Below the pieces are notes generated by a model. The model saw nothing but the letters and a program-made list of their open reading frames with translations, did no database searches and had not been told where the DNA came from. The translations under genes were made by a program, and so were the position numbers. Shown here piece after piece: positions 4,422-44,534 of a stretch of DNA of 64,000 nucleotides. How positions within the stretch are numbered: the stretch's first letter is position 1; every line of letters begins with the position of its first letter. The stretch covers positions 32,001-96,000 of IMG/VR virus record IMGVR_UViG_3300021387_001464; one strand, given 5' to 3'. This DNA is from a virus (taxonomy: Duplodnaviria > Caudoviricetes).

Positions 4422-4782
4422 AAATCAAGCAACTCAGTTACAGCGCGACTGGCTGGAAGCCTGCGAACAGGTGGGCATACCCGCCATCACCACCGATACA
4501 TCGGCACGCATCATGGCCATCATGTACGTCCACGGAGGCGGCGAGGAGGAAATGGTGCTCAACCAGAAGTTCGTCAACGACGTGAAGTACATCCAGCGTC
4601 GCTTCCACATACAGGGCGGCGAGGTACCCGACGAGACCTTCGTGCTCACCACGCAACACTACGTCAAGCAGCTGGAGCAGCACATGGCAGAGTGCATGCG
4701 CAACAACGTCACCGACATACAGATTCCCGAATGGGCGCACAAGCTGATGCGCGACCGCTACGGCATGAAGCTGCACGGGTAG
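4414..4782 (+). CDS. Hypothetical protein
   Basis: 122-aa ORF overlapping the previous stop. Confidence 0.65.
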   Translation: MNRNQATQLQRDWLEACEQVGIPAITTDTSARIMAIMYVHGGGEEEMVLNQKFVNDVKYIQRRFHIQGGEVPDETFVLTTQHYVKQLEQHMAECMRNNVTDIQIPEWAHKLMRDRYGMKLHG

Positions 4783-5508: not shown

Positions 5509-5714
5509 ATGGCGAATAAATTTCTCGGTAATGGACTGAGCCGCACGGCGATGGTGTTTAAGATTGCGACGCTGGCAGGGCATAAGCTAACGGTGCCAGA
5601 ACTGAACCGCATAAAGGATGTCAACCCCCGCACCCTGGAGCGCGTCTATGACTCCGTATTGGGGGGGTAAGTAAAGGCGATGCGCTGTTTGCGCTCAGAC
5701 TGGTATTGAAGTAA
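5509..5714 (+). pseudogene. Small gene truncated at a G7 tract; possibly phase variable
   Basis: G7 at 5661-5667 reads straight into TAA; G8 would extend it as LGGVSKGDALFALRLVLK* to 5714. Confidence 0.55.
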
Positions 5715-19249: not shown

Positions 19250-20188
19250 ATGACAATAGGACTGATAGACGTTGACGGGCATAACTTCCCGAACCTCGCA
19301 CTGATGAAGCTGTCGGCTTACCACAAGTCGATGGGCGACACGGTGGAGTGGTACGGCATCTTTGGCGAGTACGACCGGGTGTATATGGCAAAGGTATTCA
19401 CACATACTCCCGACTACAACACGGTCATACCGAACGCAAAGGAGATTGTGCGGGGCGGTACTGGCTACGACATCAAGAGCCGACTGCCAGAACAGGCAGA
19501 GAAGATAGTGCCAGACTACTCGCTCTATCCGTACATCGACAGCAAGACCGCTTACGGGTTCCTTACAAGGGGTTGCATCCGCAAGTGCCCTTGGTGTATC
19601 GTGCCGAAGAAAGAGGGCAGCGTCTATCCCTATCAAGACGTAGAGGATATTGCCGTTGACGGACGTTCACGGCTCATACTGATGGACAACAATATCCTTG
19701 CCCTGCGCGACTATGCCGAAGAGCAGTTTGTAAAAATCATCAAGAACGGCTACCGCGTAGATTTCAACCAAGGTCTTGATGCAAGGCTGGTGGACGATGA
19801 TATGGCGAAGATGCTGGCATCTATGAAATGGATAAAGGCCATCCGCTTCGGCTGCGACACTCCCAAGCAGGTCGAGGAATGTGACGTCGTGATAGATAAG
19901 TTGCGCACCTACGGCTTCAATGACGAGGTGTTGCTCTACACGATGATATACGGCGATATCAACGAATGCTTTGAGCGCATCAACCATTGGCGCGACCCCA
20001 AGTATCGGACGCTGGTAGTCTGTCAGGCCCAACCTCAGTTAGACTTTACAACCACTAAGCAGAACATTCCACAGTGGCAAAAGGATATGGCGCATTGGGC
20101 AAACAAGCGTTGGCTGTACTTCGCCGACGATTTCCATAATTTCAGTCCCCGCAAGGGCTTCCGATGCAGGGAATACTTTAATTCGTGA
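19250..20188 (+). CDS. Phage radical SAM protein
   Basis: TRGCIRKCPWC, DNN, DFNQGLDAR; N-terminal FPNLALMKLSAYHK. Confidence 0.88.
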   Translation: MTIGLIDVDGHNFPNLALMKLSAYHKSMGDTVEWYGIFGEYDRVYMAKVFTHTPDYNTVIPNAKEIVRGGTGYDIKSRLPEQAEKIVPDYSLYPYIDSKTAYGFLTRGCIRKCPWCIVPKKEGSVYPYQDVEDIAVDGRSRLILMDNNILALRDYAEEQFVKIIKNGYRVDFNQGLDARLVDDDMAKMLASMKWIKAIRFGCDTPKQVEECDVVIDKLRTYGFNDEVLLYTMIYGDINECFERINHWRDPKYRTLVVCQAQPQLDFTTTKQNIPQWQKDMAHWANKRWLYFADDFHNFSPRKGFRCREYFNS

Positions 20189-20298: not shown

Positions 20299-21534
20299 AT
20301 GAGAACAAACGAGATTTCTATCGACGTGCAGGGCTTCAAGAAAGTCCTCGACATGGTGAAGGGCTGCGTGCCCTCGAAACCCACAATGCCTATCCTCGCC
20401 AACGTGAAGCTGGACTGGGACAAGGCTACTGGCAAGTTCTACCTCTCTGCCTCCAATGGCGATCAGTATCTGACCGTGGAGTGTGCCGAGCGCCGCAAGG
20501 TGGACGACGGCATTCAGATCGAGGCTTGTGTTCACATGCTGAAGGAAGACCCCAAGGAGCACTGGCAGCCCGTCTGTCTGCCCTTTGCCGCCCTGCGTGA
20601 GATGTTCGCCCTGCTGCCCGCCGCCCGCCGCTGTCTGGTGCAGTTGGAGGAGAAGGACGATGTGCGCAAGATGAAGATTGACTATCAGGAAGGCAAGACG
20701 TCGCTGCCTTACGATGCCGCCGACGAGTTCCCCGTGCCTCCCGCAGTGGAAGCCGAGAAGTGTCGCTTCCAGACCGATGCCGCCCCACTGCTCACCGCCG
20801 TGCGCAGTGCCAAGACCTGTTCTGCTGACGACGAGTTGCGTCCCGTGATGAACTCGGTGTGTCTCGACTGCTTCATTGACAGCATCGTAGTCGTAGCCTC
20901 CGACGGTCATACTATGTATAAGCAGGTGCTCGAAACGCCAGGCTACATGCAGCAGGTAGGCTTCCCCGCCGATGGCAGCACCCGTCTGCTGTTGCCCAAG
21001 CAGGCTATGTCGAGCGTTGTCAGTGCCCTCGACAAGAGCGAGCGCATCACTGTCACTGCCGACTCGCAGCGCATGCAGTTCTCTACCGACGGCGTGACAC
21101 TCATCACCCGCTGCATCGAGGGCAACTACCCCAACTACGAGGCCGTCATCCCCAAGGACAATCCTTATAAGGTATCTATGAGTCGTGACACCCTGCGCAT
21201 GGCTCTGCGCCGTGTCGGTCTGTCGGCCAACACATCGAGCAACATGGCTACCCTCTCTTTCGCGACCGACGCCTTCGTGGTGGCTGCCGATGACTACGAG
21301 TTCTCCCGCGAGGGCTCTGAGCGTGTGCCCATCCAGCAGAACGACGCCTTCCTGCCTGCCGATTTCAAGATAGGCATCAAGATCAGCAGCACCCTCGACC
21401 TGCTCGACCTGCTCGACGAAGACAGCATCCAGTTGTTCCTCTCCGACCCCAGCCGTGCCATCCTGCTGAAGAACGAGTCGCCCACGCTGCAAGGCAAGAC
21501 GCTCCTGCAGATGCCGATGTTGGTAAATCAGTAA
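20299..21534 (+). CDS. dnaN: DNA polymerase III beta sliding clamp
   Basis: PILAN, DELRPVMNSV, VASDGH, IEGNYPNYEAVIP, terminal QMPM. Confidence 0.9.
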   Translation: MRTNEISIDVQGFKKVLDMVKGCVPSKPTMPILANVKLDWDKATGKFYLSASNGDQYLTVECAERRKVDDGIQIEACVHMLKEDPKEHWQPVCLPFAALREMFALLPAARRCLVQLEEKDDVRKMKIDYQEGKTSLPYDAADEFPVPPAVEAEKCRFQTDAAPLLTAVRSAKTCSADDELRPVMNSVCLDCFIDSIVVVASDGHTMYKQVLETPGYMQQVGFPADGSTRLLLPKQAMSSVVSALDKSERITVTADSQRMQFSTDGVTLITRCIEGNYPNYEAVIPKDNPYKVSMSRDTLRMALRRVGLSANTSSNMATLSFATDAFVVAADDYEFSREGSERVPIQQNDAFLPADFKIGIKISSTLDLLDLLDEDSIQLFLSDPSRAILLKNESPTLQGKTLLQMPMLVNQ

Positions 21535-28116: not shown

Positions 28117-28503
28117 ATGAACAAATTCCAAAAGGGCGATATGGAAGAAATACAGGATGCTTGCAGCGAGGGCAAGGAATTTTACTTAGACAGCCCTGAT
28201 AGTGACCGTAGGGCGTTCTTCAAGTTTGGAGGAACGACTTATTTCATTACGCGGGATGGCAAGGTGCTCTCATCGCGAGGCGACGGGTATCGCGAGCACG
28301 AGATTGCGCAGTATAATGGCAAGGGTTATCGTCGTGTACGGCTACGTGGCAAGACATTCAAGGTTCACCGCCTGGTGGCCGAGGCATTCGTGCCCAACCC
28401 TGACAACTTGCCCTATGTGCTGCACATTGACGGGGACCGCGAGAATAACATCTGTAGAAACCTGGAGTGGTCCGCAAAGCAGAGCAACCACCATGGGAAG
28501 TGA
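28117..28503 (+). CDS. HNH endonuclease (NUMOD4/HNH_3-like)
   Basis: KVHRLVAEAFVPNPDNLPYVLHIDGDRENN...NLEW. Confidence 0.88.
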   Translation: MNKFQKGDMEEIQDACSEGKEFYLDSPDSDRRAFFKFGGTTYFITRDGKVLSSRGDGYREHEIAQYNGKGYRRVRLRGKTFKVHRLVAEAFVPNPDNLPYVLHIDGDRENNICRNLEWSAKQSNHHGK

Positions 28504-28575
28504 AAAGTGAAAAGTGAAAAGTGAAAAATTTCTTGCTTAGGCAAGCGTACTAAAGAAACGATTAGCTACCGCCGT

Positions 28576-28730
28576 ATGAGTTATGTCGATAAACCCATCA
28601 TCCTTGGCAGGTACAGCCCGAGTCAGAATGGCATAGTGGTAAGCCCACGCGGACCCGCACTCTGCCTTGCAGGGGGGGTAACGGACACGATACGGACAAG
28701 CCGAAAATACTGATAGAACATGAATTGTAA
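28576..28730 (+). pseudogene. TRD-like mini-gene A, frameshifted (OFF) at G7
   Basis: G7 28672-28678; G8 gives MSYVDKPIILGRYSPSQNGIVVSPRGPALCLAGGGNGHDTDKPKILIEHEL*. Confidence 0.75.
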
Positions 28731-28863
28731 AACAATGCTATTGAATCCACAGGGGGGGGTATGCCGCACCATCAAGTCACAGTATTACAAAAGCAGCGTG
28801 GCGAATTTCCTGCTGCAGACCACCAGAGGAGCAACGGCAGTATTGATAGAATATGAACTATAA
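28720..28863 (+). CDS. TRD-like mini-gene B, in frame (G8)
   Basis: MNCKTMLLNPQGGVCRTIKSQYYKSSVANFLLQTTRGATAVLIEYEL*; G8 28752-28759. Confidence 0.75.
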   Translation: MNCKTMLLNPQGGVCRTIKSQYYKSSVANFLLQTTRGATAVLIEYEL

Positions 28864-29078
28864 GCGCATACCGAAGCCAGCGAACCTGCGAGACCATACA
28901 CCGAGTATGGCCGAAGCATTGCCCTATATGATAGAGGCGTGCGGTTTGAGGGGGGGGGTGTTTGTTCGACTATCGCCACTTTGTGTACGACACCATCGAC
29001 GGATGCTACCCGTTCCCAGTGACCACAAGGATTCATGCCAGTAATCAGATTTGGCTATGCAAAGAAATAGAACTTTAA
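28853..29078 (+). pseudogene. TRD-like mini-gene C, OFF at G9
   Basis: G9 28950-28958; G8 gives ...LRGGCLFDYRHFVYDTIDGCYPFPVTTRIHASNQIWLCKEIEL*. Confidence 0.65.
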
Positions 29079-29092
29079 AACAAGATAAAAGA

Positions 29093-30598
29093 ATGATTGC
29101 AAAAGTTTATCCAGATGGGCATCCTGACTTGCAAGGCAAGAAGGACCCGACGCACCCAGTGCGCTATTTCGACATCCGTAAACTCACTCCACGCAAGTGC
29201 TATTCACTGATGGGCGTGCCGCCGCAGCAGATCGACACGCTGATGAAAACCGAAAAGAAACCATATATGGCATGGGTGGGCGTAGATGCCGAACTGGCTG
29301 TGTTCGGACTGGAGCCGAGTGCCACGCGCCGCGAGGTCGATGAAGCATATCGCGAGGCTATCGAGAGTCTAAGAAGACCCACCCCCGACCCCTCCCTGGG
29401 CGAGGGAGGGGAGTGTGAAGACCCCGACAGACCCACCCCCATGCACCTCCCTGCTGAGGGAGGGGAGTGTGAAGAGCCTGAAATGAGCGAAGAGGAGGTG
29501 GCCCTGATGCGTGAGAACTACGATATGAACTACCAGCGCATCATCGCTGCCAGCCAGGAGCAGCGTTACGGTGACGTGCAGATTATTGCCAACTCGTCGC
29601 ATTACAAGCTGGCGGGTAACTCCATCGTCTGCGACGTGCTGATGTATATCTACGAGGAACTGATGTACCCGACGGGCCGCCGACTGCCGCAGGAGCAGAC
29701 CGACCTGTTCGCCCAGCCGCAGTTCCGGCTGACCCGAAACTGGAAGAAAGAGCCGCTGAAGTTGGTAACACTTTGCAGCGGCTACGACTCGCAGGCAATC
29801 GCTATGGATATGCTGCAACAGCGCTATCCGGACTTCCGATGGGAACTGAAGGCATGGAGCGAGTTCGACCCCGAGAGCAGCCGGCCACTGGAAGAGCAGC
29901 CCGCCGTGGTGGCCCATAATCTGCTGTTCCCACAATACAAGGATTTGAACCGTGGCGACATGACCAAGGCCGACTGGAGCGACCTCGCCGATGCAGGTAT
30001 CGACCTGCTGACATATAGTACTCCGTGTCAGTCCATCTCACAGGCTGGCAAGCGAGAGGGTATCAAGAAAGGTAGTGGCACTCGCAGCGCCGTGCTGTGG
30101 AGCACCGAGATGGCGGTAGAGCATCTGCGACCGAAGGTGCTATTGCAGGAGAATGTGCGGGCGCTTATCAACAGCGTGAACATGCCCGACTTCCGCGAGT
30201 GGTGCAGCCTGCTGGAGAGCTACGGCTACGTGAACTTCCTCGCGCCATCGTTCCCGACGGTCTGGGGCACCGACAAGCGCGACAAGAAGACCGTGCCGGG
30301 CATCCTGAACGCCAAGCATTATGGTGTGCCACAGAACCGCGAGCGGGTGTATATGGTCTCCATTCGTGCCGACCTGCTCGGTGGCACGCAGTATGAGTTT
30401 CCCCGTCCTTTCCCGCTCGACAAGTGCATTGCCGATGTGCTGGAGGATAATGTCGATGAGCGTTTCTTCCTGAAGCCCGACTCGGTAATCAAGTTCCTCA
30501 CAGTGAATGAATCGACTGACAGTAACGATATACACTATACGGTAACGGACCACAAACTCTCCGATGAAGAAATCGCCAAGATTCGTAGTGGAAAGTAG
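29093..30598 (+). CDS. Circularly permuted DNA (cytosine-5) methyltransferase lacking a TRD
   Basis: Order IX (RKLTPRKCYSLMG), X (YKLAGNSIV), I (LCSGYDS), IV (TPCQ), VI (ENV), VIII (QNRERVY); the start could also be 29057. Confidence 0.92.
   Translation: MIAKVYPDGHPDLQGKKDPTHPVRYFDIRKLTPRKCYSLMGVPPQQIDTLMKTEKKPYMAWVGVDAELAVFGLEPSATRREVDEAYREAIESLRRPTPDPSLGEGGECEDPDRPTPMHLPAEGGECEEPEMSEEEVALMRENYDMNYQRIIAASQEQRYGDVQIIANSSHYKLAGNSIVCDVLMYIYEELMYPTGRRLPQEQTDLFAQPQFRLTRNWKKEPLKLVTLCSGYDSQAIAMDMLQQRYPDFRWELKAWSEFDPESSRPLEEQPAVVAHNLLFPQYKDLNRGDMTKADWSDLADAGIDLLTYSTPCQSISQAGKREGIKKGSGTRSAVLWSTEMAVEHLRPKVLLQENVRALINSVNMPDFREWCSLLESYGYVNFLAPSFPTVWGTDKRDKKTVPGILNAKHYGVPQNRERVYMVSIRADLLGGTQYEFPRPFPLDKCIADVLEDNVDERFFLKPDSVIKFLTVNESTDSNDIHYTVTDHKLSDEEIAKIRSGK
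29375..29475. repeat. Two REP-like palindromic units (54-bp period) in frame inside the methyltransferase
   Basis: CCCACCCCC..CCTCCCT.....AGGGAGGGGAGTGTGAAGA twice. Confidence 0.8.
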
Positions 30599-30784
30599 TG
30601 CTGTGCTGCGGGGCGTGCGGACAGAGCACGCCCGTGCAGTACGCCGTATCTACGGTGACAGGGGGGGTACTGCCACTTCTCGGACCGCAACTACCTGCCT
30701 GCTACCGATGGCTGCAGCAACACCATCACTGGCGTACAGAAGGACAACCTATTGATAGTTGAATATGAATATAAAGAGTGTTAA
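30564..30784 (+). pseudogene. TRD-like mini-gene D, OFF at G7
   Basis: G7 30661-30667; G8 gives ...DRGGYCHFSDRNYLPATDGCSNTITGVQKDNLLIVEYEYKEC*. Confidence 0.78.
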
Positions 30785-30908
30785 GCCCTACGACGATTAC
30801 AATTCTACCCCCCCCCGACGCGATGGTGTCATTGGCACCGTTACAAGGCAAATTGGAACATCAGCACCAAGGAACGGCTGGAAAATATTGATAGAGTATG
30901 AAATATAA
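30765..30908 (+). CDS. TRD-like mini-gene E, in frame (C9)
   Basis: MNIKSVKPYDDYNSTPPRRDGVIGTVTRQIGTSAPRNGWKILIEYEI*; C9 30808-30816. Confidence 0.75.
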   Translation: MNIKSVKPYDDYNSTPPRRDGVIGTVTRQIGTSAPRNGWKILIEYEI

Positions 30909-31062
30909 CAGGATATTGCAAATAGGCAACCTTACTGAAGGTGCAGGCAGAAACAACCCGCAGCGCAGAAGGCTCTACTCGCCCTATGGCATTGCACCAA
31001 CGGTGTACGGCTATCAAGGCGGTGGCAATTTGCAACCCTTGGTATTGATAGAGTATGAGTAG
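30898..31062 (+). CDS. TRD-like mini-gene F (no tract)
   Basis: MKYNRILQIGNLTEGAGRNNPQRRRLYSPYGIAPTVYGYQGGGNLQPLVLIEYE*. Confidence 0.8.
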   Translation: MKYNRILQIGNLTEGAGRNNPQRRRLYSPYGIAPTVYGYQGGGNLQPLVLIEYE

Positions 31063-31255
31063 CGTTACCCCCATATTGCGGCAAGTCCCTGTTCGGCGAG
31101 TGCGGACGGAATGGGCAAAGGCCATCCGACGAGAGACGGGCACCAACCCGTTTCAAGCCAAACAACTGGAGGAGTTTGTGTCGGACTACATGCCTACCAT
31201 CACCGCCAGTGCAAACATCGAGAACTACATAAAGGTAGAGTATGATATTGATTAA
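31055..31255 (+). CDS. TRD-like mini-gene G (no tract)
   Basis: RVRTEWAKAIRR...MPTITASANIENYIKVEYDID*; N-terminal part resembles D. Confidence 0.75.
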   Translation: MSSVTPILRQVPVRRVRTEWAKAIRRETGTNPFQAKQLEEFVSDYMPTITASANIENYIKVEYDID

Positions 31256-31424
31256 AGAAACGATGCCCAACGAAGACCGCTTCCCTGTCCGTATCTCAGC
31301 AAGTCGTGGCAGGGGGGGGCAAAGACCGTTCCATCAGGTCATTGAACTCGGATCGTCGCAAGCCACAAACACCATCACATCAGTACAAAAAGATAATCTG
31401 GTATGGATAGAGCGAGATATTTAG
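31242..31424 (+). CDS. TRD-like mini-gene H, in frame (G8)
   Basis: ASRGRGG...TNTITSVQKDNLVWIERDI*; G8 31312-31319. Confidence 0.8.
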   Translation: MILIKETMPNEDRFPVRISASRGRGGQRPFHQVIELGSSQATNTITSVQKDNLVWIERDI

Positions 31425-31556
31425 TTGGCGTACATCCGTTCTCTCACGCTTTGGAGTGTGAGGGCAAAATATGGGGGGGGGCAAATCAGTCCTGCCCTGC
31501 GGAGTACGGATTATAAATGTCCTCATTGTGTATTGATTGAGTATGAAGGAGTTTAA
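31403..31556 (+). pseudogene. TRD-like mini-gene I, OFF at G9
   Basis: G9 31473-31481; G8 gives ...KIWGGQISPALRSTDYKCPHCVLIEYEGV*. Confidence 0.78.
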
Positions 31557-31723
31557 GTTTATTGGATGGACACGGCTCGGCAGTGGAAAAGGTGACGTAT
31601 CAAAGTATCATCTGCGCCACTACTGTAACGCCATAACCTCGTTTGCAGGGGGGGGGTATTGGCAAGGATTCGCAGACTGGAATGTATAACACCACACCGT
31701 ATGTATTGATAGAATATGAGTAA
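31543..31723 (+). pseudogene. TRD-like mini-gene J, OFF at G9
   Basis: G9 31648-31656; G8 gives ...CNAITSFAGGGIGKDSQTGMYNTTPYVLIEYE*. Confidence 0.78.
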
Positions 31724-31911
31724 AGAAAAGAAAGTTCGCCGATGCGACAACATTGCAGGGAAGTGGATGCCCGATGGCTCTATCCGCTTCTACCAAATGA
31801 ACGAGCGGAAAGGCGGTGTGCCCGAACTTGTCAACGGCTACGCTGGGGGGGGTCATGCCCTGTATCATAGCAGGCCATGAGCATTATGTTATTGTAGATT
31901 ATGACCTATGA
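31716..31911 (+). pseudogene. TRD-like mini-gene K, OFF at G8
   Basis: G8 31845-31852; G7 gives ...YAGGVMPCIIAGHEHYVIVDYDL*. Confidence 0.7.
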
Positions 31912-32162
31912 GTAACGTCAAGCATTATCCAACCGACGGGCGACCGTTTCTCTCCACCGCTTTGAGGGGGGGGCAGTTCGTGCTGCAAGTTCGACAAGCC
32001 ACGGAGCAGGGCTACATCGAGTGTGTCAGCGGTGGCGTGTTCGATGTGGCTTATCCTTCCAGCCAGCTGCGCCGTGCCCGCGTCAAGGACGACGGCCTCG
32101 TGGCATCAGCGCTCATGTCGGGTGAAACATCACAATGCGTATTCATAGAATATGACGAATAA
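31908..32162 (+). CDS. TRD-like mini-gene L, in frame (G8)
   Basis: QATEQGYIEC..GGVFDVAYPSSQLRRARV...ASALM...VFIEYDE*; G8 31966-31973. Confidence 0.8.
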   Translation: MSNVKHYPTDGRPFLSTALRGGQFVLQVRQATEQGYIECVSGGVFDVAYPSSQLRRARVKDDGLVASALMSGETSQCVFIEYDE

Positions 32163-32292
32163 AAAATATTACGGAGGAATATACTGTTGCTCTTCGCAAT
32201 ATGTGAAGAAAAAGCCTCTATGGGGCGTAGCACGTTGCATTATGGCTGATAAGGCTGACTATCATTTATTAGTAGAGTATGAAGGCTATTAA
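32152..32292 (+). CDS. TRD-like mini-gene M (no tract)
   Basis: MTNKKYYGGIYCCSSQYVKKKPLWGVARCIMADKADYHLLVEYEGY*. Confidence 0.7.
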   Translation: MTNKKYYGGIYCCSSQYVKKKPLWGVARCIMADKADYHLLVEYEGY

Positions 32293-32573
32293 ACTATCGC
32301 GCACCACATCGGCTACGGCCAAGCATTTGAGGGGGGGGGGACTTCCTGCCGGTTCAAGGCTGCGATTCAGCGAGAGCAGTCGAAAGCTCGCTTTCAGACT
32401 GCCGAGCGCAAGCAGGCTCGACGGGTTACTTGTTACCTGTCAATACCACGACAGGCGGCTGCGCCTGTACGCTCAACACCCGCTACGACGGTATGCAACT
32501 GCCAGAGGATATCCTCTCGCTCGCACACTATCCAAAGACAGTCGTGCTTATCGAATATCATCCTGACGGGTAA
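32279..32573 (+). pseudogene. TRD-like mini-gene N, OFF at G10
   Basis: G10 32331-32340; G9 gives ...PVNTTTGGCACTLNTRYDGMQLPEDILSLAHYPKTVVLIEYHPDG*. Confidence 0.72.
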
Positions 32574-32682
32574 GGTTTCGTCCTCGCAAGATGGAGTGGT
32601 CGTATCGCCATACGGCATTGCACCCACCCATTCCGCAGGGCACGGTAACTGTCCAAAGATACTGATAGAGTATAATATATAA
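32557..32682 (+). CDS. TRD-like mini-gene O, lacking its own ATG
   Basis: IILTGKVSSSQDGVVVSPYGIAPTHSAGHGNCPKILIEYNI*; ATC at the position of the usual ATG; frame open back to the G10 tract. Confidence 0.65.
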   Translation: MILTGKVSSSQDGVVVSPYGIAPTHSAGHGNCPKILIEYNI

Positions 32683-32724
32683 CAAATTCAATTTATTTAT
32701 TCACAAAACAAAAAAGTAACGATT

Positions 32725-33297
32725 ATGGCAAACTTTTCAGGCAACATCAATCTACTTGGCTTCAAGGGAGCCAAAGTGTTCACCAACCTCGACGCACAGC
32801 GACCGCAGATCGCCTACGTGTGCATCCCAGTAAACTACAACGACATCCAGCTGTCGCAGGACGGCAGGTACGCCAACGCCCGCGTCTTCATGGCCGAGAC
32901 CAACGACAAGTTCCGGCAAGCCTGCATACAGCGCAAGCAGCAGTCGGGCGACAGCATGGAAGGCTACATGCCACCCTCGCACCAGATGGAAGTGTCGTTC
33001 TCGCCCGAGTTCCGCCAGCGAGCCCTCGAAGCCGCCCGCAAGCGACTCCTGAGCGAGCACCCCGAATGGACGGGCGCCGACCTCGAAGACCCCGAGCGCA
33101 ACACCGACCTGCGCAACGCCATGTACGACGCCGTGCGCTGCCGACTGGGAAGCATGTACTGCCACCAGCGCCAGTCAGCCGCGCCCGCCGCAGCAGCCCC
33201 CGCCACCGCCACCGCCGCACAGGGCGCACAAGGCTGGACTCCGCAGGACGGCCAGCCGTTCCCAGCACAGGAGGAGAACGATGACCTGCCATTTTGA
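32725..33297 (+). CDS. SSB-like protein
   Basis: Ala/Pro/Gln linker and acidic C-terminus ENDDLPF. Confidence 0.65.
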   Translation: MANFSGNINLLGFKGAKVFTNLDAQRPQIAYVCIPVNYNDIQLSQDGRYANARVFMAETNDKFRQACIQRKQQSGDSMEGYMPPSHQMEVSFSPEFRQRALEAARKRLLSEHPEWTGADLEDPERNTDLRNAMYDAVRCRLGSMYCHQRQSAAPAAAAPATATAAQGAQGWTPQDGQPFPAQEENDDLPF

Positions 33298-33370
33298 GGG
33301 CTGAGGGCTGAGGGCTGATGGCTGATGTAGGGGTCGCCTCTTGCGAAGCGCCCCGAAACAAGAAAAGGAG

Positions 33371-33405
33371 TGTCCGCGTAGTTGCGGGCACTCTTTTTAA
33401 TTTTG
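33371..33405 (+). promoter_or_regulatory. Putative late promoter TGTCCG-N21-TAATTTTG
   Basis: Upstream of the first tail-module gene. Confidence 0.7.
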
Positions 33406-33428
33406 TACCCAACAAGACACGAATAGAT

Positions 33429-34463
33429 ATGTTTGGACAGAAATCGACACGACAAATCGACCTGCATCTGCCTACGGGCTGGAACCGCTGCACCACGGAG
33501 GAGCTGGAAGCCATCGCCGCCGCCATCATTCAGGAGCAGCAGCGAGTAGATAGATACCACCCCTTCGACTGGAGTAGGGTGAAGCTGAACGTCGCCCTTT
33601 CCATTAACGATATATCGACATATCGACATAACGATATATCGAAGGACGACGAAAGCACTTGGCTCGTAAAGCGCCCGCAGGACAAGGAGCCGTGGCCTAT
33701 CACCATGGGGCAGCTGGTGGCACTGACCGAGCGGCTGGCGTGGATAGACGACGAGAAGGCGGATAAGACGATCTTCCAGTTCCCGTATAATTCATTGAAC
33801 ATTGAACATGGAACATTGAACATTAAAGTTCAAGGTCCCCCGCCACTGCTCGACGGCTACACCTGGAACGAGTACCGCCTGCTGACCGACTGGATGCAGG
33901 CGTATATGCGGCATAGCAATGCCATAGTGAAAATGAAGAATGAAGAATTAAGAATGAAGAATCAGGAGGCGGCGGCGCAGGCACAGCGGGAGTTCCTGGC
34001 TATCCTGTTCAAACCCTGCGAAAAATCGCAGGGGACAGCAGCTGTGAATGATGGCGGCGGCAGCAAAAAAATGTTCAATGTTCAACGTTCAATGTTCAAT
34101 GTTCAATGTTCAATGTTCAATGCTCAATCTTCAATGTTCAATGTTCAATGTTCAATGTTCAATGATTTCGACCCCGTAAAATGGCAGGTCATCCTCTTCT
34201 GGTGGTCGTCGCTCATGTCGATGCTTGCGAAGAAGTTCCCCAAGGTATTCAAGCAGCAGCCCGTGGGCAAGGGCAAACGCCGCCCGCAGCAGCAGGACAC
34301 CCCGTGGGACTTTTACAACCGCGTGACCGCCACGATACAGAAATACATCGGCGGCCTCTCCGAGCAGGACGTGAACAACGCTACCTATGGCACCATCCTG
34401 CAACAGCTGGAGATGATGGCCGACGAGGCAGCGGAAATGGAAAAACTGAAAATGAAAAAGTAA
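33429..34463 (+). CDS. Hypothetical tail-module protein carrying in-frame heptamer repeats
   Basis: Start at ATG 33429; ~13 TTCAATG units at 34074-34164 translate to MFNVQCS repeats. Confidence 0.7.
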   Translation: MFGQKSTRQIDLHLPTGWNRCTTEELEAIAAAIIQEQQRVDRYHPFDWSRVKLNVALSINDISTYRHNDISKDDESTWLVKRPQDKEPWPITMGQLVALTERLAWIDDEKADKTIFQFPYNSLNIEHGTLNIKVQGPPPLLDGYTWNEYRLLTDWMQAYMRHSNAIVKMKNEELRMKNQEAAAQAQREFLAILFKPCEKSQGTAAVNDGGGSKKMFNVQRSMFNVQCSMFNAQSSMFNVQCSMFNDFDPVKWQVILFWWSSLMSMLAKKFPKVFKQQPVGKGKRRPQQQDTPWDFYNRVTATIQKYIGGLSEQDVNNATYGTILQQLEMMADEAAEMEKLKMKK

Positions 34464-39770: not shown

Positions 39771-42700
39771 ATGGCATCAAAAAAATCAGAACTCGTCCTT
39801 ACCTGTAATGCCACCGCGTTGAAAGACGTGATGAATTTCCTAAATAAGCAGTTGGATGACCTTATCCGTAAGCGTGACCGACTGAATGCTAAGGGTGTGC
39901 AGAACTGGACCGCACAGGATAAGAAAAACTTTAAGCAGTGGGGCGATGATATAGCTGCCATCAACTCGGCAATGCAGAAAAACCGAGATGAAATGGTAAA
40001 GTATGGTCAGGTGATGAAAGACCTGGCAGGCGCAAAAACCAAAGACTTGAAGCGAGCACTCGGCGAGGTAAAGCGAGCACTTGACAATATGTCGGCTCGT
40101 GACCCTGGACGTGCGCAGTTGGAAGCAGATCTAAAGAAGATACAGCGTCAGATTGATGCAAACACAGTGTCTGTCAAGAAAAACCAGTCCGCTTGGGGTG
40201 CTCTCGGTACGACCATGAAGAACCTCTTTGCCTACGCTGGTATCTTTGCGGGCTTTAACTTGCTGAAATCTAAGTTAGACGAAGCATACGAGGCCAACAA
40301 GCGGTTCTCTGACTCTATGGCTAACGTCCGTAAGGTGTCGGGATTGACAATGGACGAGATTGGCAAATTGGCCAACAACCTGTCGAAGATAGATAGCCGC
40401 ACAGGACTGGGCGGTTTGATGGAACTCGGGTACACTGGTGCAAAACTCGGCTTCGGCAATTATGGTATCGAAGGTCTGGAGTCCTTCGCTAAGTCTGCCG
40501 TCAAAGTACAGAATGCTTTGAGCGAGGATATGGGTGCCGACGCGATGACTGCCCTGTCAAAGATGGTCGAGGTAATGGGGCTGATACCGAAGATGGGTGT
40601 CGAGCGGGCCATGGACGCTACTGGCTCTGCTATCTTCAAGCTGGCATCCACCTCTACCGCCACGGGTACAAACATTGTAGAGTTCTCAAAGCGACTGATG
40701 GGTTTGGCGAATATCGCTCATATCAGTACGCAGGATTTGTTGGCATTTGGCTCTGCTGCCGACAGTATGGCGTTAATGCCGGAAGTGGCAGCTACGGCTT
40801 TCAACAAACTTATCACCGCCGTACAGAAGCAGCCTAACTTGATTGAGAATGCACTGCATATAGAAAAAGGTACTATCAGTGACCTTTACCAGACAGGACA
40901 CATGACCGAAGCCCTCGTGACTATCTTTGAGAAGATGCGCGAGAAGGGTGGCATGAATGCCCTGATGCAATCGGGTGTATTCAAGGACCTCGGCTCCGAC
41001 GGTGCCCGTCTGGTGGCTGTGATGGCTACAATGGCCAACCGCGTCGATATGCTGAACGCCCACCTCGCCGTGTCACGTCAGGCTTTCGAGGAAGGTACTG
41101 CCGTTGCTCAGGAGTACGCTATCCAAATGGACACCGCCGCCGCCTACAGCGAGCGAGCCGCTAACATCTGGGAAAAGGCATTTGTCAATCCAGAGGGTGT
41201 CGATACCGTTAAGGAGTTTACGAAGGCATGGTATGAAGTGTCGAAAGCGCTGACAAGTAATAAGGTTGCTATGGCCGAAGTTAAATTCCTACTCGGCGGC
41301 ATACTTGAATTACTAAAAGGTATTCTCTATTTCCTTCCTGCATTGTTGAGCGGCCTTGCCGTACTTGGCGCAGGGCGAATGTTCGTGGCACTGCGCTCTG
41401 CGCTCGAAATGACACGCCTTTCAGCCGTAGGACTGTCGTTATCGCTCAACGGAATAAAAACAGCATGGACGGCTCTTTCTGCTGTTGGTAAAGCCAACTG
41501 GATAGGTGCTGCTGCCACAGCCCTGTTCATGATTATCGAAGCCTTTGGTATGTTCAACAAGAAGGTGCAGGAAGCCACTGGTTATATGAAGGGTTTCAAA
41601 AAAGACTTGGGCGACCTGAATGTAGAATACGGTAAAGCAGAATCAGAACTGCGCCGCTACCGTCGAGCCATCGACGAAGCCAATTCTGGCAGCAAGCAAC
41701 GTCTGGCCACCATCAACACCTTTAATAGTAAGTTCAAGCCGTACCTGTCGAACCTGCTGACCGAAAAGTCAACGGCGCTCGACGTAGCCAAGGCATATAA
41801 CGAAGTCACCAAGGCTATACGTGCAAAGTTGGCAATGCAACTGAAAGAAAAGGACATTGAGAAATATGTTGCACCCCGTGAGCAGTGGGCCGCCGAGCGT
41901 CGCCAGGAATACGAGAAGCGTGCCAACGAAGCGGGTAAAGGTCAGTATGGCTCTACGTGGATTACGGGCTACGCACAGGACAATCGCAATAAGACGATTG
42001 ACACGATGGTGCGCGACATCGGCAAGCAGTATTACAACCTGCCGCAGCAGATCATCGACGAGGTATCGAAACAAGCCGCCGCAGGCAATACCAGTTTCAA
42101 TAACTACGGCAACATCATCAACAGTCGTTATCTGAAAGACGCTAATGCCTTGCTTGCCGCCAGCAGTTATCTGCGTCAGGAGCGTTCAGCAGAGAATGCT
42201 CTACGCTACACCAACAAGAAGTGGGGACCAGAGCAAAAACTGATTGACGACCTTACTACCCAACAGGACGAGCCGATTGAGCCACTTGTCCCTGCCCCCG
42301 ACAAAGACGCTGAGCGTGCCCTCACCAAAGCACAGCGCGAGGAAAAGAAGCACTTGAAAGACCAAATGGAAGAAGCTGAAAAGGACTCTACCGCTGTCAT
42401 CAATGCCATTGAGGAGTTCTACCGCTTGCAGGAGAGTGCCGTGGAGCAACTGGTGGCCGACGGCAAGATGACACGCGAGGAAGCCGACCGTGCGCTGAAC
42501 TACGTGAAGAACCGCAAGGACTTGATGTTGATGAACGCTCGCCGTGCCATTGCCGGCAAGGACAGCGACTTCGAGAGCCTGCGCAAGACGATGGGGCAGG
42601 ATATGCTGCGCCCCGACGACCAGAACTCGCAGCGAGCTATGAACACCGTGCAGACTATCGACGTGGCCGAAGCTGCCCGTCGTCTGCAGAAGTTTGACGG

Positions 42701-44534
42701 CTCAAAGGCAGTGTATGACCTGAATGCCGGTTCGTTTACGCAGGCCATGCTGAAGAACGCCGCCCAGAACGAGCTGAACATCCAGCGCCGACAGGCTGCC
42801 GTACAGACGGAGATTGACAAGCTACTGTTGCAGTATCGGTATGTGGAACAGGCACAGCGCGACTTCGGCGACAAGTTGGTCAAGATGGGACTCATCACCG
42901 ACGGCTATCAGAAGGTGGTGCAGCAGCTGGCTGACGGCACGGAGATTGTTGCCAACACCAACGATGTGCAGGGCTTTGCCAACAAGGTGGTGGGACTGGG
43001 CAGCTCGCTCTACGCCGTCAATCCAGAGAGCACCGACCAGTTGAAGCAGTTGATGCAGACCACCATGACCACCAATGGCACGGACAAAGAGTCGTTCGCC
43101 GCTATCTTCCCCAACTACGACAAGTGGATGGAGCAGCCCGAGAAGTATAAGGAGCAGATGCAGGCTATGTATGAATTGATGATTCAGTACGAGGGCATCT
43201 ACTACGACAAGCTGAAACAGCGCGACGACTTGCAGAACAAGCGCCTCGGCTCGTGGTGGAACCACTCCGACCAGAAGAAGGAGAACGACCAGAAACTGCG
43301 CGACATCCAGCTCTACGACTTCCAGTATAACACGATGCACGAGGGCGAGACGATGGGCTTTATGATGGGACTGACCAACGACCTCACCCACGACCCGGAG
43401 GTGATCCACGAACAAGCCGTACTGGAACAGAAGATTGCCATTTGGAAGAAGGCCAAAGAAGAGCGTGAGGCAGATCTTATCTCCGAGCAGGTCTATCAGG
43501 ATAAGTTGCGTGACATGCAGGATCAGACAATGGCCTACTCGCAGAAGGTGATGGAAAACCTTAATAAACGTATCTCGCGCATCCAGAATTTCGTCAAGCC
43601 CGTCGAGACCGCTGCCAACACCATCGGTAAGAAGTTGGGCGACATGATATTCAACATGCAGTCGGAGGAATCCACGTGGGAACAGATTTGGAAGAACATG
43701 GCACTGGCTATGGCTGAGTCGCTGCTGACGATGGTTGGTCAGTACGCGCAATACCAGATACAAAAGGCCGCCATCAACAAGTCCGAAGTGCTCGACGAAG
43801 CCGCCAAGGCACAAGCCATCACCATGCTCGGCATCAGCAGTGGTGCTGCCAAGACCATCGGTACCTTGGGTTGGTGGGGTATCGCCCTCATCCCCGTCAT
43901 CACGTCGCTCCTGATGGGCTTGCTGACATCGGCACTATCGACGGCCAGCGAAAGCAGTAACGACACATCGTCATCCACCGCCGCCACCAAGAATACCAAA
44001 CTCGTCAGCGGTATGCTGACCTACGATAAGGGTAATGTGCAGCGGTTCATCGGTCAGGACGGCAAGGTATATACCGCCACTGCCGAGCCTGCACCGAAGG
44101 ACGGACTCATTACGCACCCCATCGCCACCACCGTGCAGGGTCAGCCCGCACTCGTGGCAGAGAACGGTCCCGAAATCGTCATTGGCCGCGAAACCACCAA
44201 GGCCATTATGATGAACGAGCCCGAACTCATCCGCTACCTCGCCAACTATCAGAAGCACGGCGGTCGTCGCCTGTTCGACAGAGGGAATGCTGATGCGGCG
44301 CTTCGTAATAACGATATATCGACATATCGAGATAACGACACAAACGACGCCGCCACCGAGCGTCAGGCGCTCATCAACCGCCTTGACCGCAGCGACGCAC
44401 TGATGGAACAGGTGCTCTACTACCTCCAGAACCCCATCGCCCCCGAAATCGCCATGTACGACACGGGCGGCAAGAAGGGCTTGCGCTCGAAGATGAAGGA
44501 AGCCGACCGCTTCATGTCCCGCTACGACGGGTGA
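39771..44534 (+). CDS. Tail tape measure protein
   Basis: 1587-aa helical Ala/Lys/Glu-rich protein, TP901-like core (MANVRKVSGLT), hydrophobic segments, C-terminal ALVAENGPEIVI. Confidence 0.9.
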   Translation: MASKKSELVLTCNATALKDVMNFLNKQLDDLIRKRDRLNAKGVQNWTAQDKKNFKQWGDDIAAINSAMQKNRDEMVKYGQVMKDLAGAKTKDLKRALGEVKRALDNMSARDPGRAQLEADLKKIQRQIDANTVSVKKNQSAWGALGTTMKNLFAYAGIFAGFNLLKSKLDEAYEANKRFSDSMANVRKVSGLTMDEIGKLANNLSKIDSRTGLGGLMELGYTGAKLGFGNYGIEGLESFAKSAVKVQNALSEDMGADAMTALSKMVEVMGLIPKMGVERAMDATGSAIFKLASTSTATGTNIVEFSKRLMGLANIAHISTQDLLAFGSAADSMALMPEVAATAFNKLITAVQKQPNLIENALHIEKGTISDLYQTGHMTEALVTIFEKMREKGGMNALMQSGVFKDLGSDGARLVAVMATMANRVDMLNAHLAVSRQAFEEGTAVAQEYAIQMDTAAAYSERAANIWEKAFVNPEGVDTVKEFTKAWYEVSKALTSNKVAMAEVKFLLGGILELLKGILYFLPALLSGLAVLGAGRMFVALRSALEMTRLSAVGLSLSLNGIKTAWTALSAVGKANWIGAAATALFMIIEAFGMFNKKVQEATGYMKGFKKDLGDLNVEYGKAESELRRYRRAIDEANSGSKQRLATINTFNSKFKPYLSNLLTEKSTALDVAKAYNEVTKAIRAKLAMQLKEKDIEKYVAPREQWAAERRQEYEKRANEAGKGQYGSTWITGYAQDNRNKTIDTMVRDIGKQYYNLPQQIIDEVSKQAAAGNTSFNNYGNIINSRYLKDANALLAASSYLRQERSAENALRYTNKKWGPEQKLIDDLTTQQDEPIEPLVPAPDKDAERALTKAQREEKKHLKDQMEEAEKDSTAVINAIEEFYRLQESAVEQLVADGKMTREEADRALNYVKNRKDLMLMNARRAIAGKDSDFESLRKTMGQDMLRPDDQNSQRAMNTVQTIDVAEAARRLQKFDGSKAVYDLNAGSFTQAMLKNAAQNELNIQRRQAAVQTEIDKLLLQYRYVEQAQRDFGDKLVKMGLITDGYQKVVQQLADGTEIVANTNDVQGFANKVVGLGSSLYAVNPESTDQLKQLMQTTMTTNGTDKESFAAIFPNYDKWMEQPEKYKEQMQAMYELMIQYEGIYYDKLKQRDDLQNKRLGSWWNHSDQKKENDQKLRDIQLYDFQYNTMHEGETMGFMMGLTNDLTHDPEVIHEQAVLEQKIAIWKKAKEEREADLISEQVYQDKLRDMQDQTMAYSQKVMENLNKRISRIQNFVKPVETAANTIGKKLGDMIFNMQSEESTWEQIWKNMALAMAESLLTMVGQYAQYQIQKAAINKSEVLDEAAKAQAITMLGISSGAAKTIGTLGWWGIALIPVITSLLMGLLTSALSTASESSNDTSSSTAATKNTKLVSGMLTYDKGNVQRFIGQDGKVYTATAEPAPKDGLITHPIATTVQGQPALVAENGPEIVIGRETTKAIMMNEPELIRYLANYQKHGGRRLFDRGNADAALRNNDISTYRDNDTNDAATERQALINRLDRSDALMEQVLYYLQNPIAPEIAMYDTGGKKGLRSKMKEADRFMSRYDG

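Follow-up and report, generated by a model that had tools for sequence, protein, structure and literature searches.

The window analysed here is a stretch of 64,000 nucleotides from a tailed phage (positions 32,001 to 96,000 of IMG/VR record IMGVR_UViG_3300021387_001464). Its positions 28576-32682 hold a predicted gene for a C5-cytosine methyltransferase core that lacks a target recognition domain (TRD), surrounded by fifteen short cassettes, named A-O, which are encoded on the same strand (Table 1). The initial annotation of this DNA had described three units upstream of the core and twelve downstream, and all fifteen are present where it placed them (A-C and D-O), as are the six motif strings that it had listed, which fall in cassettes F, H, I, B, L, and N. 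It had also described the units as short overlapping open reading frames (ORFs). Every one of the fifteen exists as a unit, but in the present sequence only seven of them (B, E, F, G, H, L, and M) run intact from ATG to stop. The frame of A, C, D, I, J, K, and N/O is broken, in each case exactly at a homopolymer run.

The permuted core and its cassette array

By its match to PF00145 and its catalytic motifs, the core is a C5-cytosine DNA methyltransferase. Core residues 282-476 correspond to profile positions 42-220 (E = 6e-36), and a weak match places residues 23-44 of the N-terminus at profile positions 270-291 (E = 0.028). As positions 270-291 stand ahead of 42-220, the coordinates of the hidden Markov model themselves show the circular permutation, in agreement with the order IX-X-I-IV-VI-VIII without a TRD that the initial annotation had read. 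The chain runs from motif IX and motif X through an acidic low-complexity linker to motif I, motif IV (PCQ), motif VI (ENV), and motif VIII (QNRER), and the PHROG matches to motifs IX and X are located at the N-terminus of the core. It starts about 25-35 aa ahead of motif IX and ends about 80 aa past motif VIII, with no TRD-like stretch inside. Motifs IV, VI, and VIII (as QxRxR) are invariant over 29-33 core homologues. Motif I (FxGxG) is conserved in position, and relatives such as the single-chain protein P0171 have the canonical motif I aligned to it; in the core family the second glycine is replaced, and this form of the motif is invariant there.

The core ORF ends at 30598 and offers three starts, at 29051, 29057, and 29093. 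Judged from its surroundings, the ATG at 29057 is probably used rather than that at 29093, because it lies inside the tail of cassette C, as is the case for all other starts of the array, and because the 12 extra codons (29057-29092) are homologous to the TRD-core linker of relatives in which a TRD is fused to the core. Among the core homologues P0012, P0010, and P0040 (alignment A1, columns 385-460) some have an insertion of 40-70 aa between motifs I and IV and some an 11-aa insertion after motif VIII. In the IMG/VR relative L013 a frameshift near motif IV (4609-4648) splits the core into two overlapping ORFs, which is either a real break or an assembly error.

Table 1. Core gene and cassettes of the methyltransferase locus, in window coordinates, with the homopolymer run and the frame state as sequenced
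Feature	Coordinates	Strand	Homopolymer run	State	Remarks
Cassette A, HhaI-like TRD type	28576..28730	+	G7 at 28672-28678	OFF	G8 restores frame to LIEYE-type tail; in-frame orthologues in L004, L005, L006
Cassette B	28720..28863	+	G8 at 28752-28759	ON	one G fewer in strains X2, X5, X3; same TRD type adjoins motif IX in single-chain P0147
Cassette C	28853..29078	+	G9 at 28950-28958	OFF	G8 restores frame
TRD-less circularly permuted C5-methyltransferase core (predicted)	29057..30598	+			motif order IX-X-I-IV-VI-VIII; alternative start 29093
Cassette D	30564..30784	+	G7 at 30661-30667	OFF	begins inside 3' end of core gene; G8 restores frame
Cassette E	30765..30908	+	C9 at 30808-30816	ON
Cassette F	30898..31062	+	none	ON, constitutive	partner in the complex model
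Cassette G	31055..31255	+	none	ON, constitutive
Cassette H	31242..31424	+	G8 at 31312-31319	ON
Cassette I	31403..31556	+	G9 at 31473-31481	OFF from ATG 31403	G8 restores frame; TTG 31425 would read in frame
Cassette J	31543..31723	+	G9 at 31648-31656	OFF	G8 restores frame; ON orthologues in L003, L004; type fused to core in L008-L013
Cassette K	31716..31911	+	G8 at 31845-31852	OFF	G7 restores frame
Cassette L	31908..32162	+	G8 at 31966-31973	ON
Cassette M	32152..32292	+	none	ON, constitutive	other sequence in its place in strains X2, X5
Cassette N	32279..32573	+	G10 at 32331-32340	neither TRD	shared leader from ATG 32279, then the run; G9 gives TRD N
Cassette O	32293..32682	+			no own start codon; TRD part 32569-32682; reached via G8 or G11 at the 32331 run

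Profile comparison supports the cassettes as TRDs homologous to the tandem TRDs of single-chain multispecific C5-methyltransferases. A profile of the A-, F-, and O-type cassettes (alignment A2, 9 rows) gives 459 matches among longer proteins, nearly all of them PF00145 proteins, with E-values down to 7e-22 and 85-93% of the cassette covered, so that the TRD-type sequence noticed in the initial annotation is borne out. The matches that were read (P0171, P0129, P0170, and P0147) are single-chain enzymes with 3-5 tandem TRDs of the window types F, O/A, L, B, and D/H. These TRDs are located between motifs VIII and IX, and each of them finishes in a PKIL/PKVL strand where the cassettes have their LIEYE tail. 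Cassette L matches positions 59-110 of phrog_16427, annotated as 'DNA methyltransferase' (E = 7e-5), and motif IX of the core takes the adjoining positions 111-137 of the same profile. Of the 11 PDB matches of the A2 profile, 10 fall on the recognition-loop region 228-257 of M.HhaI; they comprise all the best ones and are weak (E = 0.21). Single cassettes gave only a chance zinc-finger match among the PDB sequences and, with the exception of cassette L, no match in Pfam and PHROGs. Cassette G, compared with 1.8 billion representatives, matched four stand-alone mini-proteins, one spurious repeat protein, and nothing else; its relatives are stand-alone only, 58-65 aa in length, and it is counted as a TRD on the resemblance of its first half to the D type.

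We note that in P0171, P0170, and P0147 a canonical motif I follows motif X at the C-terminus. This suggests, from the motif order, a second and different circular permutation in the wider family, with the break between motifs I and IV. Several of the single-chain multispecific relatives also contain inteins or zinc ribbons (Pfam).

The cassettes are joined to one another in a uniform way. Nearly all end in a strand of the LIEYE type, with a stop codon within 0-4 codons after it, and at 13 of the 14 junctions the next ATG lies in the last 4-35 nt of the preceding ORF, mostly within the Glu-Tyr-Glu codons. For the junction motif TGATWGARTATRA 0.42 occurrences are expected, and 8 are present. 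The last cassette, O, retains the peptide tail but has AAT in place of the ATG, and the tail of N is also without an ATG. The stop at every junction is conserved in more than 15 loci, and the array is not a single polypeptide of the SPR/phi3T type. Stop-codon reassignment or read-through into one polyprotein is excluded, since TAA, TAG, and TGA are all used at the junctions and the frame shifts at each of them.

The array is under selection. The pooled ratio of non-synonymous to synonymous differences (pN/pS) against the orthologues in ten loci is 0.25 for the TRD parts, 0.32 for the leaders, and 0.28 for the core, with synonymous sites near saturation, and the clean orthologue pairs have dN/dS of 0.02-0.16, values biased downward by the choice of pairs on protein similarity. 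Despite this bias the conservation over saturated synonymous sites is, on these alignments, not due to chance. Cassette G differs from its L004 orthologue by 16 synonymous and 4 non-synonymous changes, and in the frame-broken cassettes both halves are conserved, each in its own frame. Pseudogene decay is ruled out by the purifying selection, and chance ORFs are ruled out by the homology and the conservation across loci. We read the cassettes as separate units, presumably translated as such, under purifying selection like that on the core.

The complex of the core (alignment A3, 29 rows) with cassette F (alignment A2) was predicted in three runs. The interface score ipSAE is 0.86 (0.85-0.87 over the runs) against 0.00 for the best control, with at least 77% of the contacts in common between the runs and a predicted local distance difference test score (pLDDT) of the partner of at least 75; the ipSAE mark is passed by 58 of 80 solved complexes and by 2 of 110 mismatched pairs, and it serves as a rough guide only, with our own alignments in use here. 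In the model, residues 48-51 of F, which belong to the tail, pair with core residues 26-28 just ahead of motif IX, and residues 31-35 contact the QNRER of motif VIII at core 413-417. Further contacts involve motif X and the region past motif VIII. In the fused relatives the strand equivalent to the cassette tail leads directly into the N-terminus of the core, and the model places F at this cis-TRD site, where these relatives attach their TRD. The AlphaFold2 model of P0005, a natural TRD-core fusion, has a mean pLDDT of 63 and values below 50 across the TRD and the C-terminal region.

Small peptides with one common docking strand, which by the model would compete for one site, might instead be regulators or decoys, blocking the core or titrating host restriction or modification proteins, for example. 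However, the homology of the cassettes to working TRDs of single-chain enzymes extends from end to end and takes in the recognition-loop motifs, and the core would be left without a DNA-reading part if the peptides were absent; we consider such a role very unlikely.

Homopolymer runs and the reading frame

The window contains 27 matches to G or C 7-mers, where 3.35 are expected. The genome of 111.7 kb has 14 G/C runs of at least 7 nt, and 11 of them are found within the 2.6 kb of cassettes, which make up 2.3% of its length (binomial probability ~4e-16). The runs encode the Gly-Gly(-Gly) of the TRDs, and we read the ON or OFF state of each cassette from the ATG at its junction. In the state captured by the window seven cassettes are in frame and eight are off, and seven of these eight are exactly one base away from ON; cassette O needs the loss of two bases or the gain of one at the 32331 run. 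The ON frames of A, D, J, K, and N are confirmed by orthologues elsewhere that are in frame or run-free. Among them are the run-free, uninterrupted orthologues of D in L005 and L013 and the uninterrupted orthologues of K in L007-L010 and L013.

The runs are polymorphic. Strains that are ~96% identical differ in run length at 28752, where X2, X5, and X3 have one G fewer, and at 30660, where X5 and X3 have one G more, which is the extra G of cassette D. A recognisable TRD tail follows 58 runs in 13 loci; 17 of these runs are ON and 41 OFF, and the ON state is mostly G8, the OFF state G7 or G9. Two features of contingency loci are present in the array: a repeat in the coding region sets the frame, and a given type of cassette can be ON in one locus and OFF in another. 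The initial annotation had proposed broad, tunable protection against restriction. The homopolymer switches had been left out, and with them the picture becomes one of stochastically switched protection.

The run at 32331 has a more complex role. The 17-residue leader from ATG 32279 enters the G10 run, and with G10 a 95-aa product without a TRD results, with G9 TRD N is read, and with G8 or G11 the third frame is entered, in which 129 codons without a stop lead across N into TRD O. L001, L003, and L004 have this overlapping open frame as well, and there too O is without an ATG. In L006, where N is present and O is absent, several stops close each of the two alternative frames. In the window and in L004 none of the three frames is closed across N, so base composition contributes to this openness. 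Each state of the switch exists in nature: L004 is in the N state, the database proteins P0201 and P0152 show the O state, and the window, L001, and L003 are OFF.

The frame breaks might also be bypassed without heredity, by slippage of RNA polymerase or the ribosome on the G runs, which would yield in-frame and out-of-frame products side by side from every cassette in every infection and make the runs a means of tuning dosage. Consistent with this, the share of the 58 runs that are in frame (29%) is about random, as if the DNA frame were unselected, and purifying selection persists on both halves of the broken cassettes. However, the clustering of ON at G8 and OFF at G7/G9 is that of contingency loci, and some orthologues encode the same glycines run-free and in frame. 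Known transcriptional slippage, moreover, favours A/T runs of at least 9 nt, and replication slippage has its classic substrate in G/C runs of 7-10 nt. Bypass at the level of RNA is in our view quite unlikely.

Another explanation dispenses with any special mechanism: the array would be the decaying remains of a single-chain multispecific methyltransferase, or its broken frames would be sequencing and assembly errors at homopolymers. Single-chain multispecific relatives do exist, G runs are error-prone, and an independent assembly of the probable source run (contig record 5, run X1) differs from window positions 30451-32750 by one inserted base somewhere in the D-O array, which could be a run-length difference within the same sample. 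Yet more than 15 loci, taken from independent samples, share the junction stops and frame changes, with synonymous sites saturated, and the stop-start junction motif is conserved. Neither the confinement of 11 of the 14 runs to 2.3% of the genome nor the long intact ORFs elsewhere in it fits this explanation, and errors would not make stops after each tail. We find this explanation extremely improbable.

As a separate observation, three G/C runs of at least 7 nt lie outside the locus, namely a G7 at 5661-5667, at the end of a small ORF (5509-5670), and a G8 and a C9 at genome positions 29405 and 106841, outside the window. By their sequence these may mark other phase-variable genes. The core gene of several relatives has a C7-C10 run ~95-125 nt after its start, in the Thr-Pro-Pro codons of motif IX (L001:193, L002:4127, L003:4095, and L018:4095), so that the whole enzyme may be switchable there; the core of the window is without such a run.

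Related loci, cassette turnover, and the phage genome

The core has matches to more than 2000 database proteins, with 64-100% identity for the top 120. The same architecture is present in more than 15 related phage or prophage loci of Prevotellaceae, with varying run lengths and cassette content. All the related loci that were read (L001-L013 and L018-L021) share it, with 1 to more than 10 cassettes and with G7-G11 runs clustered beside the core, and the same TRD types recur across them in varying order, upstream as well as downstream of the core. A TRD fused to the core is absent from seven loci, namely the window, L001, L003, L005, L006, L018, and L021. In L002 and L004 an upstream TRD with its own G run is fused in frame to the core, and in L008-L013 a J-type TRD is fused to it without a run. 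Such fused forms (e.g., P0028 and L002) have the chain order TRD-IX-X-I...VIII. The initial annotation had held that homologous loci in the form of a single continuous ORF would refute a split enzyme. Such forms occur at the margin: distant relatives are single-chain and some close ones fuse one upstream TRD, but all the close loci keep free cassettes.

The content of the array changes between related strains. On their contigs cassette K is lost exactly (192 nt, with 9 nt shared at the joint; strain X5), E, F-I, and O are lost, and C and M are replaced. The probable source run itself contains a second contig (depth 13 vs 20) with a different array between 30510 and 31966. As these gains, losses, and replacements take place at the junctions, the junction motif also serves as a recombination breakpoint.

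This turnover raises the possibility that the free cassettes are mainly a recombination reservoir, with only the TRD fused in cis to the N-terminus of the core being active, like silent pilin cassettes. It would account for the fused forms in close relatives, for breakpoints in the junction motif, as in the loss of K and at the other joints, and for the variable cassette order between loci. However, the enzyme would then be dead in the seven loci that have no fused TRD, and each cassette retains its own ATG and a leader under selection, the ATG being absent only where no cassette follows. In the complex model, moreover, it is a free cassette that docks. A reservoir function is, on this evidence, unlikely.

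The contig that contains the window is 111,678 bp long, and since its ends are near-identical we consider the genome probably complete. It belongs to a tailed phage, with a tape-measure protein at 39771-44534 of the window, a helicase at 799-2691, and a sliding clamp at 20299-21534. An HNH endonuclease is encoded at 28117-28503, immediately 5' of the methyltransferase array. A radical SAM protein at 19250-20188 (phrog_9298, E = 6e-103) lies within the phage replication module. The nearest genomic relatives of the methyltransferase are in the Prevotellaceae metagenome-assembled genomes RUG209 and RUG13201 and in the cultured Prevotella sp. MGM1, and the sequencing runs with the locus are animal gut metagenomes, including those of sheep and cattle. 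The phage host is therefore most likely a Prevotella, as far as these relatives and samples indicate. Among GenBank phages no match to the locus was found by megablast, and in a tblastn search with the core no record covers at least 80% of the permuted core, the catalytic half alone giving matches below 46% identity. A scan of the locus for sigma-70 promoters and terminators was uninformative, Bacteroidota promoters lying outside the models of the scan.

Several short tandem repeats surround the array. AATGTTC is repeated 13.6 times at 34070-34164, inside the ORF 33318-34463, and encodes a 7-aa peptide repeat. Further heptanucleotide repeats are found at 33295-33325, 33793-33824, 33928-33962, and 28498-28527, and the period of 7 is not a multiple of 3. 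AAGTGAA, repeated 4.3 times directly 5' of cassette A, draws very many unrelated contigs (depth ~36,000). From their period, the heptanucleotide repeats may be additional slipped-strand switches.

Proposed mechanism and comparison with known systems

With somewhat more confidence than doubt, we read the locus as a split, multispecific, and phase-variable C5-cytosine methyltransferase of a Prevotella-type tailed phage. This supports the initial annotation, which had proposed one catalytic subunit that accepts interchangeable specificity peptides in trans. The mechanism would be as follows.

Step 1: The core and the cassettes would be translated as one coupled operon. A single gene makes the catalytic core without a TRD, and each of the fifteen translationally coupled mini-genes would give a TRD peptide of 45-85 aa that ends in the shared beta-strand, the LIEYE-type tail.

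Step 2: The peptide would dock on the core in trans, with its tail paired to the core strand before motif IX and its recognition loops placed beside motif VIII. Docking would complete the small domain and confer one sequence specificity, and different peptides would confer different specificities. As the peptides would compete for the core, we propose that silencing the unneeded ones raises the share of the useful ones.

Step 3: In the ten cassettes with a run of 7-9 nt of G (once C), slipped-strand mispairing during replication of the phage DNA would change the run by one base and thus turn the cassette on or off heritably. The eleventh run (G10) would pick between two TRDs in overlapping frames, or neither. 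Depending on the rate of switching, a phage population would hold up to ~2^10 x 3 methylation states.

Step 4: The presumed benefit is hedging, as some hosts have Type II or similar restriction enzymes that demand a given methylation and others have methyl-dependent (Type IV) nucleases that punish it.

Several points weigh against this reading. Its support comes from sequence comparison and structure prediction. The 29% of runs in the ON state equals the expectation for random frames, which fits fast neutral switching and also slippage at the RNA level or assembly noise at G runs, and the run lengths are taken from assembled contigs, which are blind to heterogeneity within one population. The docking covers cassette type F, and its passing score may reflect the memory that the model has of solved single-chain C5-methyltransferases, thus measuring likeness and not binding. 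For the G-type cassettes the TRD assignment is that given by the resemblance to the D type. Finally, several relatives have a TRD fused in cis, so that their enzyme does not strictly depend on the free cassettes for its activity.

Each element of the proposed system has a known counterpart. The multispecific C5-methyltransferases of Bacillus phages, M.SPRI, M.Phi3TI, M.Rho11sI, and M.H2I, carry tandem TRDs in one polypeptide between motifs VIII and IX. These enzymes, together with the uncharacterised single-chain relatives P0171, P0129, and P0170, resemble the locus as read here in having one core with several tandem TRDs of ~40-60 aa, in a phage setting and with a presumed anti-restriction role, and the TRD types of P0171, P0129, and P0170 are homologous to those of the window cassettes. 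However, the TRDs of the Bacillus phage type are all in one chain that is always expressed, whereas those of the window are mini-genes with their own stop and start, most of them with a homopolymer switch, and the window core is permuted and TRD-less.

Assembly from separate polypeptides is known as well. M.EcoHK31I is a two-subunit C5-methyltransferase. Another is M.AquI, with its alpha and beta subunits (PMC5944983), and fragments of M.SssI, M.MpeI, and M.BspRI have been made to complement each other artificially (PMC3404938, PMC5944983). In all of these a C5-methyltransferase assembles from polypeptides split near the TRD, as is proposed for the window locus. Unlike the two-subunit enzymes, which are one fixed pair of large fragments with one specificity, the window would detach the TRD alone, as 45-85 aa cut on both sides, with many such peptides to each core. 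Natural circularly permuted 'type H' C5-methyltransferases are M.BssHII, M.Alw26I, M2.Eco31I, M.Esp3I, and M2.BsaI (PMC5944983). They share with the window core the position of IX-X ahead of I-VIII and new termini in the variable region. However, in the window the TRD is also severed from motif IX, which leaves the core without a TRD, and there are fifteen alternatives instead of one; a stop and a frame change separate cassette C from the core, and the core chain has no TRD at its N-terminus.

Switching of specificity is familiar from bacteria. HsdS is the separate specificity subunit of Type I restriction-modification, phase-variable Type I and Type III methyltransferases form 'phasevarions', and poly-G contingency loci occur in Campylobacter, Haemophilus, and Neisseria. 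As in the locus proposed here, a separate specificity subunit joins a common catalytic subunit, and simple repeats in coding regions switch the specificity and give mixed populations. In contrast, these systems are cellular N6-adenine enzymes with one or a few switchable alleles, whereas the window would have a viral C5-cytosine enzyme with ~11 independent switches in one operon, and one of its runs would choose between two TRDs encoded in overlapping frames. Phase-variable methyltransferases and contingency loci are reviewed in PMC11868660 and PMC12707154.

As proposed, the locus would combine the multispecific, the permuted, the split, and the phase-variable kinds of methyltransferase, and the combination would give a new property. 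Our full-text literature search returned permuted enzymes, split M.AquI, artificial complementation, multispecific phage enzymes, and bacterial phasevarions, but neither free TRD mini-genes nor homopolymer-switched TRDs were found described; the initial annotation, too, knew of no described system with this architecture. We regard it as an even call whether the locus is a virus-encoded device for combinatorial epigenetic bet-hedging, with trans-docking DNA-reading subunits of 45-85 aa, independent heritable switches, and a three-way frame selector, and as such contains the smallest known free methyltransferase specificity subunits and the first multi-switch phasevarion of a phage.

If the proposed mechanism is true, a small free peptide supplies the specificity of a methyltransferase, which would offer programmable cytosine methylation a natural, modular design. 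It would also open a direct route to the 'recognition code' of C5-methyltransferase TRDs, with one peptide and one motif each. We note that gene callers miss or mis-frame such mini-genes, and that homopolymer 'errors' in assemblies of such phages may be real biology. The system is testable, since the cultured Prevotella sp. MGM1 carries a related array (L021). Under the proposed mechanism phages, and not bacteria alone, would use contingency loci, and here they would diversify the phage methylome against a mixture of Type II and Type IV restriction in the Prevotella communities of rumen and gut.

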